Assembly (NCBI GenBank): GCA_036266835.1
Contig: DATAXD010000011.1
Span: forward strand, 183-64,182
DNA from: Galbitalea sp.
Lineage (GTDB): Bacteria > Actinomycetota > Actinomycetes > Actinomycetales > Microbacteriaceae
Length of the DNA stretch: 64,000 bases
Direction of reading: 5' to 3'
How positions within the stretch are numbered: position 1 is the stretch's first letter; every line of letters starts with the position of its first letter. This document shows, piece by piece, positions 17,175 through 22,782 of the stretch. The position numbers were made by a program, and so were the translations under genes. The notes under the pieces are model-generated. The model was not told the DNA's origin, ran no database searches, and worked only from the letters and a program-made list of their open reading frames with translations.

Positions 17175-18401
17175 TTAGCCGCGCGGGACACCGACCGGTT
17201 CTGTATCCGGGATCGGGCTCGAGTCGCGACCGCGCAGGTCGGGATGCCAGCCGTGGAACGCGATCGCGACCAGGGCGGCGAGCACCGCGAGAACGCTCGC
17301 GACGATGAATCCGCCGATCGCGCCGTGCCCGTCGATGAAGAAGCCAGCGACGGCCGACCCGGCAGCCGCGCCGATGAGCTGGCCCGTGCCGACCCATCCG
17401 TAGGCCTCCGCCGTCTCACTGAATCGAACGCTGGATGCGACGATCGCCGACATGACTCCGAGGGCCGGGGCGATCCCGAGGCCGGCGACGAGAAGCGCGC
17501 CGGTCAGGGTCCAGAAGGTGCCGCCGAATTGCAGGGCCACGGCAACCGTCGCGAGCCCGATTCCGATCGCGATCACGACCATCCGCCGTGACAGCGCCCA
17601 TCGATCGAGCTGCTGGCTGCCGAGCGCCAGACCACCGATGAGCGAACCGATGGACCAGACCGCGAGGACGATGCCGGCCTGGGGCCCGCGGTGCCCGAAC
17701 ACGGAAACGACATCCGCCTCGGTGGCTGCGCATGCCCCGATGAGCAGAAGGCCCACGAGCGTTGCGAGGATGACGGGTTTCTTGCGCAAAACGGCGCCCA
17801 GCGACCGGCGGCTACGCGGAATGCGCACCTTGCCTACCTCGGGCGACAGCAGGAACCACAGGCCGCCGCCGAGCAGCAAGACCCCGGGAATCAGAACGCC
17901 GATCACCGTCGACACCTGGATCGATACAAAGGTGATGACGACCGGGCCCGCGATCCAGATGATCTCCTGCGCCGACGCGTCAAGAGCGAAGAGCCTGGTG
18001 AGCTGGGACGACGTGACCATCTTCGGATAGATCGTCCGAACGGCGGGCTGCACCGGTGGAGTACTCAGCCCACCGATAAATCCGATGACCACGTACATGG
18101 GCAGGGTCAGTGTGATGAACGCGATCGAGAAAATCGTCGCGGCGCAGACCAGCGTCGTGAGAATCAGAACAGGACGCATGCCCCAACGACCCATCCATCG
18201 GCTGGTGAGCGGGCCAGCGATGGCCTGGCCCACGCTCGTCGCGGCGAGAACGAGGCCCGCTTCCCCGTACGAGTGCGTGACGTACTGAACGCGCAGCAGG
18301 TACGCGAGCGACAGCATCCCATTCGGGAGCCGTGCAGTGAGCTGCGCCGCGATGATTCGCGCGACCCCGGGGGTTCTCAGGAGACTCCCGTATGTGCTCA
18401 C
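17175..18401 (-). CDS. MFS transporter
   Basis: About 12 TM helices. GTG 18401 (VSTYGSLLRTPGVARII...) is chosen because the upstream ORF extension is non-coding-like. Confidence 0.8.
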   Translation of the reverse strand: MSTYGSLLRTPGVARIIAAQLTARLPNGMLSLAYLLRVQYVTHSYGEAGLVLAATSVGQAIAGPLTSRWMGRWGMRPVLILTTLVCAATIFSIAFITLTLPMYVVIGFIGGLSTPPVQPAVRTIYPKMVTSSQLTRLFALDASAQEIIWIAGPVVITFVSIQVSTVIGVLIPGVLLLGGGLWFLLSPEVGKVRIPRSRRSLGAVLRKKPVILATLVGLLLIGACAATEADVVSVFGHRGPQAGIVLAVWSIGSLIGGLALGSQQLDRWALSRRMVVIAIGIGLATVAVALQFGGTFWTLTGALLVAGLGIAPALGVMSAIVASSVRFSETAEAYGWVGTGQLIGAAAGSAVAGFFIDGHGAIGGFIVASVLAVLAALVAIAFHGWHPDLRGRDSSPIPDTEPVGVPRG

Positions 18402-18565
18402 TGGGGCCTCATTTCGCACCCAGTCTATCGACCACGTGATCCACTGAGCGTGGGCGTCGGTGGCCACTCGTACGGTTGTCCACAGGCACCCCGGAATTGT
18501 GCACAGGAAACACGGGCAAATGTGCAGAAGTAGTGGCAAGTTGTTGAGAAATTGTGGACGACACG

Positions 18566-18613
18566 CCACGATATCTAGTGTCGATCGGGTTGAATAGACC
18601 CAAGATATAGGGA
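18566..18613. promoter_or_regulatory. Tandem NrdR boxes
   Basis: CCACGATATCTAGTGT (18566-18581) and ACCCAAGATATAGGGA (18598-18613), compared with the published 16-bp consensus acaCwAtATaTwGtgt. Centres are 32 bp apart. Located 132 nt upstream of nrdA. Confidence 0.7.
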
Positions 18614-18744
18614 TTGAGCCGCCGGGTCGGGGGCGTTGGAATGGCAATATCCAGGGGCATTTCGTTGTTTAATCAACGGGATGTTCACGGCGCAATCGGC
18701 ATCGAAATTGCCGGGCGCGCCGCAGCATTGATAAGGAGTTTTTC

Positions 18745-21201
18745 GTGACAATTACCGTCGTCAAGCGCAACGGCCAGCGTGAGCCGTACGACGCGAACAA
18801 GATCAACCTCGCGATCGAGAACGCGAGCGCCGGTCTCGACGAGAACATCACGTGGGTGACCCAGATCGCCTCCGAACTGGAGCTCACCCTGTTCGACGGC
18901 ATCACGACCCAGCAACTCGACGAGGCCGTCATCCAGGTCGCGCTGCAGAACGTCAAAGACGACCCCGCATTCGACGTTGTCGCGGCCCGGCTGCTGCTTA
19001 AGACGATCTACAAGCGCGTACTCGGCGACTACGAGACCGCCGACGAGCTCAAGAAACTGCACAAGGAGCACTTCGCCACCAACATCCGTCGCGGAGTCGA
19101 CGAGGGTCTGCTCGACTCGCGCCTGATCGAGATGTTCGATCTCCAGAAGCTGGCCGACTCGCTCGAGCCCGAGAACGATGAGCTGCTCAAGTACATCGGG
19201 CTGGTCACGCTCGCCAACCGCTATGGCATCAAGGGGCGCAACGGCGACGCGCTCGAAGTGCCGCAGTACTTCTGGATGCGGATCGCGATGGGGCTCTCGC
19301 TCAACGAGTCCGACCCGACGACCCACGCGCTCGCGTTCTACAACAAGATGTCCAGGCTCGAGTACATCGCCGCCGGCTCGACTCTCGTCAACGCGGGCAC
19401 CGCGTATCCGCAACTCGCGAACTGCTTCGTCATGGAGATGCAGGACGACATGGAGCACATCGCCAAGACGACGCGCGATGTCATGTGGCTGACCAAGGGC
19501 ACCGGCGGCATCGGGCTGTCGGTGACGAAGCTGCGTGCCCAGGGCTCGCCCATCCGCTCAAACAACACGACCTCCACGGGGCCGATTCCGTTCATGCACA
19601 CGATCGACTCGATTCTTCGGGCCGTCAGCCGCGGCGGCAAGAAGTTCGGCGCCCTGTGCTTCTACATGGAGAATTGGCACCTCGACTTTCCCGAGTTCCT
19701 CGACCTGCGACAGAACTCCGGCGACCCTTACCGCCGCACCCGCACCGCGAACACCGCCGTCTGGATCAGTGACGAGTTCATGAAGCGCGTGCAGAACGAC
19801 GACGACTGGTACCTGTTCGACCCGCTCGAAGTCTCCGACCTCAACGAGCTCTATGGCAGCGCGTTCTCGGTCCGCTACAACGAATACGTGGCCAAGGCCG
19901 AGGCCGGCGAAATGCGGATGTTCAAGAAGCTTGGCGCGCGCGAGCAGTTCAAGTCCATCCTGATTTCCCTCCAGACGACGAGCCATCCGTGGCTGACCTG
20001 GAAGGACACGATCAACAACCGCGCCCTGAACAACAACACCGGCACGATCCACCTGTCGAACCTCTGCACGGAGATCACGCTTCCGCAGGACAAGGACAAC
20101 GTCTCGGTCTGCAACCTGGTATCGATCAACCTGTCGCAGCATTTGCTTCCGACCATGTCCGTCGACTTCGCAAAGGTCGAGGAGAGCGCGCGGCTCGCGA
20201 TCCGTCAGCTCGACAACCTCATCGACATCACTCGCTCCTCCGTCAAGGAGGCCGACTTCTCGAACCACCAGAACCGTGCCGTGGGGCTCGGAGTGATGGG
20301 TTTCACCGACATCATCGAGCGGATGGGTATCTCGTACGAGAGCGAAGCCGCCTACGAGCTGATCGACGAGATCATGGAACACGTCTCCTACGCCGCCATC
20401 GACGAGAGCACCAGCCTCGCCAAGGAACGCGGCGCCTACCCAAACTTCGAAGGCTCGCGCTGGTCGCAGGGAATGGTGCCGTTCGACTCGATCGCACTGA
20501 CCGAAGCCGATCGTGGCACCCCGATTGCCGTTAACCGCACGACTCGCCTCGACTGGGATGCCCTTCGCGCGAAGGTGAAGGGCGGCATGCGCAACGCGAC
20601 GCTGATGGCGATCGCGCCGACCGCGTCCATTGGGCTGGTTGCCGGAACGACTCCGGGCTTCGACCCGCAGTTCGCTCAGATCTTCAGCCGCGCTACCTCC
20701 AACGGTAAGTTCCTCGAGGTCAACCGCAACCTCGTCAACGACCTCCAGAAGCTCGGTATCTGGGAGTCGACCAAGGAGACGATCCTGCGGAGCCAGGGCG
20801 ACATCCAGAACATTGCCGCGATCCCGGATGCGGTGAAGGCGACCTACAAGACGAGTTTCCAGCTCTCGCCGTACTCGTTCCTCGAGGTTGCCGCGCGCGC
20901 CCAGAAGTGGATCGACCAGGCCATCAGCCGCAACATGTACCTGGAAACGCGCGATCTCGGCGACATGATGGACATCTACTTCGGCGCCTGGGAGCGCGGC
21001 GTCAAGACGACCTACTACTTGCACATGAAGCCGCGTCACACCGCCGAACAGTCGACGGTCAAGGTGAACAAGGCAGAAGACCTGACGGGTACTGCCACCG
21101 CATCCGATTCGGCGGGCAGTGCGACCGACTCGGCCATTGCTGCCGTCGCGGGCCCCGCACGTCGCGGTTTCGGCGGGCTCACTCCGAAGTCGGAGGGTTG
21201 A
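18745..21201 (+). CDS. nrdA: Class I ribonucleoside-diphosphate reductase alpha subunit (R1) with N-terminal ATP-cone; lacks C-terminal Cys pair
   Basis: ATP-cone VVKRNGQREPYDANKI, then LANCFV, SNLCTEITLP, SVCNLVS and the TTYYL dyad. AAGGAG Shine-Dalgarno sits before GTG 18745. Confidence 0.95.
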   Translation: MTITVVKRNGQREPYDANKINLAIENASAGLDENITWVTQIASELELTLFDGITTQQLDEAVIQVALQNVKDDPAFDVVAARLLLKTIYKRVLGDYETADELKKLHKEHFATNIRRGVDEGLLDSRLIEMFDLQKLADSLEPENDELLKYIGLVTLANRYGIKGRNGDALEVPQYFWMRIAMGLSLNESDPTTHALAFYNKMSRLEYIAAGSTLVNAGTAYPQLANCFVMEMQDDMEHIAKTTRDVMWLTKGTGGIGLSVTKLRAQGSPIRSNNTTSTGPIPFMHTIDSILRAVSRGGKKFGALCFYMENWHLDFPEFLDLRQNSGDPYRRTRTANTAVWISDEFMKRVQNDDDWYLFDPLEVSDLNELYGSAFSVRYNEYVAKAEAGEMRMFKKLGAREQFKSILISLQTTSHPWLTWKDTINNRALNNNTGTIHLSNLCTEITLPQDKDNVSVCNLVSINLSQHLLPTMSVDFAKVEESARLAIRQLDNLIDITRSSVKEADFSNHQNRAVGLGVMGFTDIIERMGISYESEAAYELIDEIMEHVSYAAIDESTSLAKERGAYPNFEGSRWSQGMVPFDSIALTEADRGTPIAVNRTTRLDWDALRAKVKGGMRNATLMAIAPTASIGLVAGTTPGFDPQFAQIFSRATSNGKFLEVNRNLVNDLQKLGIWESTKETILRSQGDIQNIAAIPDAVKATYKTSFQLSPYSFLEVAARAQKWIDQAISRNMYLETRDLGDMMDIYFGAWERGVKTTYYLHMKPRHTAEQSTVKVNKAEDLTGTATASDSAGSATDSAIAAVAGPARRGFGGLTPKSEG

Positions 21202-21203
21202 GG

Positions 21204-21308
21204 GTGGACCTGTTCAACGAACTGCAGGTTGGCACTTCGCGTGTCGTGGAAGAGTACTTCGTACCGGTCGACCCGATGGACGACCTCCAGTGCGAGAGCT
21301 GCCAGTAG
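21204..21308 (+). CDS. 34-codon ORF encoding an R1-tail-like peptide (VDLFNELQ...DDLQCESCQ)
   Basis: GTG lies 2 nt after the nrdA stop, with GGAGGG 6 nt upstream. Its TAG abuts the nrdB ATG. 28 of 34 codons end in G/C. The CESC terminus resembles R1 redox tails. Confidence 0.5.
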   Translation: MDLFNELQVGTSRVVEEYFVPVDPMDDLQCESCQ

Positions 21309-22301
21309 ATGCCAATCCTAGGAACGGGCTTGCAGGAGGGACTGCTCCTCAAGCCCATCAAGTACCAGTGGGCGATGGACCTTTACGACCAGGCCGTCGC
21401 CAACACCTGGTTCCCCAACGAGATCCAGCTCGGCGAAGACATCGCCGACTTCAAGAAGATGACTGATGAGGAACGCCACGCCGTAACCTTCCTGATGAGT
21501 TACTTCAATCCGAACGAACTCCTGGTCAACAAGGCGCTCGCCTTCGGGGTTTACCCGTACGTCAGTGCCGCGGAATGCAGCCTTTATCTCGCCAAGCAGA
21601 TGTGGGAAGAGGCCAACCACTGCATGAGTTTCGAGTACGTCCTCGAAACCTTCCCGATCGACCGCAACGAGGCCTACAACGCGCACGTCGATATTCCGTC
21701 CATGGCTCGAAAAGAAGAATTCGAGTTGAAGTACATCCGTCGCATGACGGAGCAGACTCTCGACATCACGACAACCGAGGGCAAGAAGGACTTCGTCCGC
21801 AACCTCGTCGCGTACAACGTCATCCTCGAGGGCGTCTGGTTTTATTCGGGCTTCATGGTCGCCCTGTCGTTCCGCCAGCGGAACCTGCTGCGCAACTTCG
21901 GATCGCTAATGGACTGGGTGGTCCGCGACGAATCCCTGCATCTCAAGTTCGGTATCAACCTGATCCTCACCGTGCTCGAAGAGAATCCCGACCTTCAGAC
22001 CGAAGAATTCGCTGCGGAGATCAAGCAGATGATCCTGGATGCCGTGGAGATGGAAGAGGAATACAACCGCGATCTGCTTCCCGGCGGCATCCTCGGCCTC
22101 AACGCCAGCTACATCAACCAATACGTGAAGTACCTGGCCGACCGCAGGCTCGAGGAACTCGGCTTCGAGGCCGAGTACAACGTGTCGAATCCGGCGAAGT
22201 GGATGGCGGCAGCCAACGACACCCTGCAACTGGTGAACTTCTTCGAGTCGACGAACACCTCGTACGAGTCGAACGCCTCGGCTACGGAGTCGAAGAAGTA
22301 G
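21309..22301 (+). CDS. nrdB: Ribonucleotide reductase beta subunit (R2), class Ic-like (Phe at radical position)
   Basis: Ligand set E70, E101-x-x-H104, E174, E208-x-x-H211. F108 sits at the H+4 position where class Ia has Tyr. C-terminal ...NTSYESN Tyr is present. Confidence 0.9.
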   Translation: MPILGTGLQEGLLLKPIKYQWAMDLYDQAVANTWFPNEIQLGEDIADFKKMTDEERHAVTFLMSYFNPNELLVNKALAFGVYPYVSAAECSLYLAKQMWEEANHCMSFEYVLETFPIDRNEAYNAHVDIPSMARKEEFELKYIRRMTEQTLDITTTEGKKDFVRNLVAYNVILEGVWFYSGFMVALSFRQRNLLRNFGSLMDWVVRDESLHLKFGINLILTVLEENPDLQTEEFAAEIKQMILDAVEMEEEYNRDLLPGGILGLNASYINQYVKYLADRRLEELGFEAEYNVSNPAKWMAAANDTLQLVNFFESTNTSYESNASATESKK

Positions 22302-22302
22302 C

Positions 22303-22782
22303 TTGACGATCGAAATTCGGCGGATCGACTACAACGATCCGCGCGCCATAGTCATCCGCGAGGCGATGGATGCGGAGATGGGCGTGCTGTACGCCGGCGT
22401 CGACGAGTCGTTCGACGACGACATGCGCACCGCAATTGGTGCTTCGCTCGCGGTCCATCCCGAGCAGATGATCGCGACCATCGGTGCCCTGGATGGCGAG
22501 AAGCTCGTGGGTCACGCCGCGCTTCGGCCGTTCGAGGATGACCTCGAGGTCAAGCGAGTCATTGTGCTGCCCGAGTACCGCGGGCGCGGCATTTCGAAGC
22601 AACTGATGTCCGAACTCGAGATCATCGGCCGAGAGTCCGGGGCAAAACGACTCATCCTTCAAACCGGCGATCGCCAGGTCGAAGCGATCGCGCTGTACGA
22701 GGCGATCGGGTATCGGCAAATCGAGCGGTTCGGGCTCTACGCGCCCATTCCGTTCTTCCTCTGCTACGGAAAGCAGCTGTAG
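22303..22782 (+). CDS. GNAT family N-acetyltransferase
   Basis: VLPEYRGRGISKQLMSELE acetyl-CoA binding motif (R/Q-x-x-G-x-G/A). TTG start lies 1 nt after the nrdB stop. Confidence 0.8.
   Translation: MTIEIRRIDYNDPRAIVIREAMDAEMGVLYAGVDESFDDDMRTAIGASLAVHPEQMIATIGALDGEKLVGHAALRPFEDDLEVKRVIVLPEYRGRGISKQLMSELEIIGRESGAKRLILQTGDRQVEAIALYEAIGYRQIERFGLYAPIPFFLCYGKQL

Follow-up and report, generated by a model that had tools for sequence, protein, structure and literature searches.

How is the active site of a class I ribonucleotide reductase (RNR) restored after turnover if its catalytic subunit, R1 or NrdA, ends before the cysteines that do this work? The question is raised by the nrdA–nrdB locus of a Galbitalea sp. 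metagenome-assembled genome (MAG), which we analyzed within a 64,000-nt stretch of contig DATAXD010000011.1 (hereafter, the window). In canonical enzymes, the R1 tail is flexible and moves into and out of the active site (PMC11903788), the cysteine pair at its C-terminus is itself reduced by thioredoxin, glutaredoxin or NrdH (PMC6187632; PMC11903788), and all class I RNRs have been stated to carry this pair on NrdA (PMC6187632). In the window, nrdA stops short of any such pair, and a small open reading frame (ORF) fills the space between nrdA and nrdB. This small gene, which stands apart from nrdA, is conserved, shows a coding signature with purifying selection and shares homology with the fused tails of other R1 proteins. 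We judge it quite probable, from comparison of the sequences, that its product is an independently translated, nrdA-coupled micro-protein that carries reducing equivalents from a redoxin to NrdA in trans.

The window nrdA (18745–21201, + strand; start GTG at 18745, stop TGA at 21199–21201) encodes an 818-amino-acid (aa) class I catalytic subunit of the NrdAz type, with one ATP-cone, an all-alpha domain and the RNR barrel (Pfam PF03477, PF00317 and PF02867). Its product matched the NCBIfam model NF005101 with 1615 bits and also matched TIGR02506. The closest solved structure is the NrdA of Pseudomonas aeruginosa (5im3), which places the window NrdA in the NrdAz clade (clade name from PMC9669993). 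An earlier note on this DNA, made from its letters, had described an NrdA that keeps the class I landmarks and has no cysteine after TTYYL. This description held: LANCFV, SNLCTEI, SVCNLVS and TTYYL were all found, and we counted 0 Cys within the last 64 residues, starting from TTYYL. The active-site cysteine motifs that require reduction remain intact.

Where, then, are the missing cysteines? The small ORF (21204–21308, + strand) opens with GTG at 21204, 2 nt past the nrdA stop, runs for 34 codons and closes with TAG at 21306–21308, directly adjoining the nrdB ATG at 21309. Its product is VDLFNELQVGTSRVVEEYFVPVDPMDDLQCESCQ, ending in DDLQCESCQ; the last 18 residues form a core, E-Y-F-V-P-V-D-P-M-D-D-L-Q-C-E-S-C-Q (21252–21305, + strand), in which the CxxC pair is encoded at 21291–21302. 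A Shine-Dalgarno (SD) sequence, GGAGGG (21192–21197, + strand), lies 6 nt ahead of the GTG, where nrdA encodes its final S-E-G; an alternative start, TTG at 21198–21200, overlaps the nrdA stop (TTGA) and is poorly spaced from this SD. The third base is G or C in 28 of the 34 codons, and, with respect to nrdA, the ORF occupies the −1 frame, which is open back to 20907. Start, SD, TAGATG junction, third-base composition and open frame had all been listed in the earlier note, and each was reproduced from the sequence.

Searches with known models gave little further purchase on the peptide. No Pfam or NCBIfam family was matched by the window peptide alone, and a profile of the peptide had 0 matches among PDB sequences at E values up to 10, so there is no structural handle. 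An Rfam scan of the whole window found nothing, and thus no known RNA element lies at the nrdA/small-ORF junction. The small ORF also appears to be unannotated in the source record, because the accessions of NrdA and NrdB are consecutive (HEX4057062.1 and HEX4057063.1) and the exact window peptide is absent from the protein collection searched. Several GenBank/RefSeq genomes do annotate the peptide (24–30 aa; P0006, P0007, P0010, P0017, P0077 and others), under the name "ribonucleotide-diphosphate reductase subunit beta". We regard this name as an error carried across genomes, since none of the NrdB family models in Pfam or NCBIfam resembles the peptide.

Is this arrangement peculiar to a single assembly? 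We scanned one genome per species, which gave 552 related loci, and kept the best 80, all of them from Microbacteriaceae, in which the C-terminal half of NrdA is 75–89% identical to that of the window. Every readable NrdA tail among the relatives (79/79) contains 0 Cys, and nrdB neighbours the nrdA locus in all 78 loci that reach far enough. Past the nrdA stop, 77 of the 79 informative loci have a separate ORF of 21–52 codons that ends in [ED]-Y-x-V-P-V-D-P-M-D-[DE]-L-Q-C-[DE]-S-C-Q; these 77 tail sequences come from 76 of the 80 loci and the window itself. Four of the 80 loci have no tail ORF: L041 and L060 stop at a contig edge, and L056 and L069 show none in the DNA available. Such recurrence, together with the protein-level constraint on the last 18 codons, is far above chance.

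This distribution bears directly on one explanation put forward in the earlier note, namely that a normal nrdA was broken by a single misassembled nucleotide or by a frameshift of recent date, to which a recent nonsense mutation can be added. In its favor, the contig is metagenome-assembled and the split adjoins a GGG run. However, the same split is found in 77 independent assemblies, including the complete isolate genomes of Clavibacter nebraskensis (CP168429) and Leifsonia poae (CP192580), and the junction sequences, stop codons and frames differ among the loci. An nrdA stop precedes the tail ORF in all 77. An assembly error or recent mutation is thereby refuted, and the probability that we leave to it is negligible.

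The variation among the 77 sequences has the pattern of a gene whose product matters. P, D-P-M, L, both C and the final Q are invariant. In the last 18 codons, the fraction of sequences that depart from the commonest base is 0.06 at first, 0.05 at second and 0.28 at third codon positions, and the Ser of the core is written both as AGC and as TCC; of the codon differences counted, 14566 are synonymous and 8859 non-synonymous. The third-position-weighted variation, the two types of Ser codon and the invariant residues indicate selection on the protein and not on DNA or RNA. Searching a 5.8-billion-protein collection with the peptide profile (41 aa in its first row) matched 1394 clusters at 90% identity, and the best 120 of these are all 24–40 residues long. 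The window considered by itself might suggest a non-functional remnant of an old tail that is kept for its overlap with the nrdB translation signals, as the ORF runs right up to the nrdB ATG and spans the region in which the nrdB ribosome-binding site must lie. In the relatives, however, the distance from the end of the ORF to nrdB varies, from about −19 to +163 nt, and the core thus keeps no fixed position relative to where nrdB begins; moreover, conservation is at the amino-acid level with third positions left free, and the motif has been kept throughout those 1394 distinct clusters. We therefore consider a mere remnant highly improbable.

What did the peptide derive from? We assembled 150 representatives (50% clusters) of NrdA relatives out of 1.8 billion proteins. 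Most of them carry a C-terminal CxxC, commonly within C-x-[IL]-[DE]-x-P-x-C-E-[AS]-C-Q, and 64 of the 150 end in C-[DE]-[AS]-C-Q. The nearest tail-bearing relatives, P0212 and P0272, are 71% identical to the window NrdA and end in ...ARRGFGAATAAPTPAPAPVAVVPEEIQELDVVDGSACPIDPQERLQCESCQ (short form ...ACPIDPQERLQCESCQ); P0121, at 60% identity, ends in ...VCPIDPAERAQCDSCQ, and P0122, at 53%, in ...ACPTDPAERALCESCQ. When the end of the window NrdA, ...ARRGFGGLTPKSEG, is continued by the peptide, VDLFNE...EEYFVPVDPMDDLQCESCQ, the two together are collinear with all four of these proteins, and the core is likewise collinear with the fused tails ...CPIDPQERLQCESCQ. Compared against the 150 representatives, the peptide profile matched at extreme C-termini only, and three of its four top matches are the nearest fused relatives (16.7, 12.1 and 7.3 bits). 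In the peptide, Val stands where the fused tails have the first of their three cysteines, and a new, invariant Tyr/Phe lies two residues upstream of it.

Because it is collinear with and homologous to the fused C-terminal tails, the small ORF is best explained as a former R1 tail that was split off by gene fission. The suggestion that the QCESCQ-ending peptide is the equivalent of an R1 tail is thus borne out, both by the collinearity and by the restriction of the profile matches to NrdA C-termini. Like a tail, it has its CxxC at the extreme C-terminus, with C, C and Q invariant in all 77 sequences; where it departs from a tail is in not being a covalent part of NrdA, as the nrdA stop intervenes in 77/77 loci, under three frame relations, and the ORF has its own start. 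The fission point appears to lie in the disordered linker, a few residues past RRGFGGL, and the last ~20–50 residues with the CxxC-Gln end would now be separate. The motif A-R-R-G-F-G-G-L (21157–21180, + strand; NrdA residues 805–812, ~6 residues upstream of the stop) is present in nearly all 80 loci and also in the fused P0212 and P0272, where the chain runs on into the Cys tail. The Cys-free linkers of the window and of loci L001–L080 contain one or two copies of R-[RK]-G-F-G(-F-G)-G-L, and GFG-type repeats are present in the linkers of the fused P0121, P0122 and P0212 too.

Could the tail nevertheless be joined to NrdA during translation? In 74 of the 77 loci, the first start codon of the small ORF is found at −1 to +8 nt, counted from where the nrdA stop begins; stop and start overlap as ATGA or TGATG in 55 of them, and most loci have an SD-like AAGG, GGAG or GAGG 5–12 nt upstream of the start, inside the last nrdA codons. 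Given a start that coincides in part with the nrdA stop or comes right after it, and an SD within nrdA, translation of the small ORF seems to be coupled to that of nrdA, and the level of the peptide is therefore probably tied to the level of NrdA. The alternative is recoding, in which a −1 slip at GGT-TGA, or read-through at the in-frame loci, would join the tail to NrdA and yield a full-length R1. Besides the open −1 frame and the SD-like GGAGGG at the junction in the window, it can draw on the −1 relation of 65 of the 77 loci and on the 10 loci in which the ORF is in frame and the nrdA stop alone stands between the two. But the −1 relation follows from the ATGA and TGATG overlaps, which are the usual signature of coupling, and the frame relation itself is not conserved, with 10 loci in frame 0 and two in frame +1. 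Furthermore, in 10 of the 65 loci with the −1 relation, the peptide frame is closed by a stop codon no more than 7 nt upstream of the nrdA stop, and a slippery heptamer X-XXY-YYZ was not found in the last 60 nt of nrdA in 74/77 loci. A start codon and SD are kept in nearly every locus, and the N-terminal part of the peptide is free in both length and sequence from the start codon onward. Programmed −1 frameshifting is accordingly out as a general mechanism, the slip that the earlier note had proposed was not upheld, and recoding in any form is in our judgment very unlikely. At one locus (L075:4188-4263), the tail ORF lies in frame behind the nrdA TGA and has no ATG, GTG or TTG start, where either an assembly indel or read-through is possible.

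The remaining proposal of the earlier note, that the tail is made as a separate peptide, fits the comparative evidence: the gene stands on its own and is conserved, it is equipped with a start and an SD, and its product shares homology with fused tails. How would such a peptide work? It would be made at a level coupled to that of NrdA. After each turnover, the active-site disulfide of NrdA, formed by the Cys of LANCFV and SVCNLVS, would be reduced by the Cys30/Cys33 dithiol of the free peptide, and the oxidised peptide would in turn be re-reduced by a thioredoxin- or glutaredoxin-type reductant. A separate redoxin would still be needed, because the peptide replaces the tail itself. The conserved acidic and aromatic stretch upstream of the CxxC, E-Y-x-V-P-V-D-P-M-D-D, probably provides affinity for NrdA or for the redoxin and so takes the place of tethering. 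In yeast, the tail of one R1 protomer reportedly serves the other.

Several points weigh against a free peptide that serves NrdA. The similarity to fused tails is short, covering 14–15 residues with at most 16.7 bits. Where the three-Cys NrdAz tail (C-x-I-D-x-P-x-C-E-x-C-Q) has its first Cys, the peptide has Val, and the chemistry may therefore differ. A free peptide would forfeit the high local concentration that tethering provides. L056 (a Homoserinimonas sp. MAG) and L069 (a Diaminobutyricimonas MAG) each encode a Cys-free NrdA, but the DNA available goes straight on to nrdB and contains no tail ORF, so the peptide there is either dispensable and lost, or encoded elsewhere. In the 10 in-frame loci, low-level stop-codon read-through may give some fused protein. 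Finally, it is from the conservation and homology of the sequences that we infer translation and redox activity, and docking on NrdA and service to it in trans are deduced in the same way.

Tail-less NrdA proteins outside Microbacteriaceae offer an outside view of the same problem. Among the 150 representatives, five full-length NrdA of other lineages have no tail Cys, and we inspected their flanking contigs. P0199, which is intein-bearing and sits in a phage-like context, is followed 33 nt past nrdA by a 42-aa ORF (L083:6095-6223), MSQVDSSSSVDMNDDDDFLSGITPQDVPKACSIDNPDCEACQ, ending in ACSIDNPDCEACQ. Directly downstream of P0276 (L084:3533-3826) lies a gene for a 97-aa glutaredoxin with a CGAC active site, whose C-terminus runs ...LDDDFLAGAQTSDKYEVCENCQ (...YEVCENCQ). 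The product looks like a reductant fused to the very tail that it would normally reduce. P0157 (L082), P0210 (L085) and P0265 (L086) have no adjacent tail. The arrangements at L083 and L084 imply that a neighbouring gene can provide the tail, once fused to the reductant itself. They belong to different NrdA lineages and appear to be independent, sporadic events.

Neither of these two arrangements proved to be widespread. An identical copy of the L084 glutaredoxin-tail gene, together with a tail-less nrdA, was found in another metagenome (L149:2708-2998), and two or three independent metagenome samples contain this gene's sequence. We found no viral relatives of this glutaredoxin-tail and, among the metagenome contigs searched, only the one identical copy; the idea that the fusion forms a large family was therefore dropped. 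Nearly all of the 61 IMG/VR relatives of the L083 NrdA are fused, so that detached tails of the L083 type are not common in phages. The 42-aa ORF of L083 and the glutaredoxin tail of L084 have in common a DDDFL-x-G motif that may be a docking element. Separately, L085:2501-6403 encodes a 1300-aa protein in a phage-like context that combines DNA polymerase III beta-clamp domains with an ATP-cone and a class I NrdA lacking the tail Cys.

Does the split have to do with the other subunit? The window nrdB (21309–22301, + strand) encodes the radical-generating subunit (Pfam PF00268) and is of the class Ic type (Mn/Fe R2c-like). Its closest solved structures are those of Chlamydia trachomatis R2c (1syy and 4d8f; E 5e-73). 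Aligned with 1syy, EEANHCMSF falls on EEAVHTHTF and NPNELLV on STAESLV, with Phe at the position of the radical Tyr and Glu as first metal ligand; 74 of 76 relatives likewise have Phe at the radical-Tyr position. The Phe in place of the radical Tyr and the Glu, not Asp, as first metal ligand identify the enzyme as a class Ic RNR. A Phe-type NrdB also accompanies the fused-tail relative L081, and a link between the split and the class Ic cofactor was rejected on this ground.

The class Ic operon is nonetheless one of several features that would suit a new role for the peptide, either as a CxxC-containing, acidic metal-binding helper for the Mn/Fe cofactor of NrdB or as a regulator competing for an NrdA site, with NrdA reduced directly by a redoxin or small thiol. 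The peptide is acidic and has a CxxC, it has lost the first tail Cys and gained the new invariant Tyr/Phe, L056 and L069 manage without an adjacent copy, and the use of reductants is diverse among RNRs (PMC11903788). Yet the part of the peptide that is invariant is the part common to fused redox tails, D-P...Q-C-[DE]-S-C-Q at the C-terminal end. The class Ic-type NrdB beside the fused L081 means that the split does not track the cofactor, and the glutaredoxin-tail fusion of L084 ties tails of this kind to redoxin chemistry. A new role is thus unlikely, although we give it more weight than the other alternatives.

Returning to the peptide as a detached tail, we think it probable that the whole family runs a class Ic RNR with a free, diffusible, disordered dithiol carrier of 21–52 residues that docks via E-Y-x-V-P-V-D-P-M-D-D, and that the same solution arose independently elsewhere, in the phage-like 42-aa ORF and in the glutaredoxin with a tail. 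Its expression would follow that of the enzyme. Two palindromic 16-mers resembling NrdR boxes (as defined in PMC13584703), CCACGATATCTAGTGT at 18566–18581 and CCCAAGATATAGGGAT at 18599–18614 (both + strand), lie about 130–180 nt upstream of nrdA, and most relatives have similar pairs, 32–33 nt apart, upstream of nrdA; the paired boxes are likely the repressor site of the operon. A promoter and terminator scan of 18300–22700 detected neither an internal promoter nor a + strand terminator separating nrdA, the small ORF and nrdB. With the paired boxes upstream and no such internal signals, the three genes look like one NrdR-controlled operon.

If this interpretation is true, the function of the R1 tail is modular and can be transferred, and the published statement that all class I RNRs have the pair on NrdA would not hold. 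A class I tail split that extends across a family would show that covalent tethering is not required. The re-reduction half-cycle, which is poorly resolved, could also be studied in a natural system of two pieces, in which the concentration, affinity and redox state of the peptide could be varied apart from the enzyme. The gene would represent a conserved, functional micro-protein of a kind that gene callers often miss, and plant pathogens such as Clavibacter and Leifsonia might be targeted selectively through it. Surveys that score "NrdA without C-terminal cysteines" may misjudge how such enzymes are reduced. In the full-text literature, from which most subscription journals lay outside our search, we found no description of a split class I tail, of its motif or of a small ORF between nrdA and nrdB.

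How does the arrangement compare with known systems? The canonical NrdAz tail, as in P. aeruginosa NrdA and the C. trachomatis class Ic R1 (...C-x-[IL]-[DE]-x-P-x-C-E-[AS]-C-Q), has the same order of parts, with TTYYL and a disordered linker followed by a C-terminal C-[DE]-S-C-Q in the peptide; the D-P segment is collinear with that of the nearest fused relatives, and both presumably act as a dithiol shuttle from redoxin to active site (PMC6187632; PMC11903788). Unlike the canonical tail, the peptide is separate and has its own start and SD, its first Cys has been replaced by Val, and it has the added invariant Tyr/Phe. RNR-dedicated redoxins, such as NrdH and the glutaredoxin fused to NrdB in Facklamia ignava (PMC6187632), resemble it in being small CxxC components within an nrd operon. 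NrdH and glutaredoxin, however, are reductants of the NrdA tail and have a thioredoxin fold (~75–110 residues, in which helix 1 has the CxxC at its N-terminus). We also weighed, and rejected, the possibility that the peptide is itself such a thioredoxin-fold redoxin: 34 aa are too short, the CxxC is at the extreme C-terminus, and nothing in Pfam, NCBIfam or the PDB matches.

Among the split arrangements, L083 and L084/L149 share with Microbacteriaceae the order of a tail-less nrdA and then a tail-bearing gene, but only in Microbacteriaceae is the split fixed family-wide; the others are rare. The nearest published parallel is the class II NrdJa/NrdJb system of P. aeruginosa, in which the separate NrdJb polypeptide mediates reductive dithiol exchange (PMC4520616; PMC9669993) and which has been called the unique split RNR of a free-living organism (PMC4520616). 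There, as here, the catalytic barrel and the Cys-bearing C-terminal part are encoded by two adjacent genes. However, NrdJa/NrdJb is B12-dependent and its second part has domains predicted to be folded, whereas the present system pairs a class I NrdA (NF005101, TIGR02506) and its NrdB partner with a probably disordered peptide of 21–52 residues; the families are not homologous, and NrdJa/NrdJb is an analogue only. The detached tail of Microbacteriaceae would thus extend a known principle, that of a cysteine-bearing part placed on its own polypeptide, to the tail of a class I RNR.

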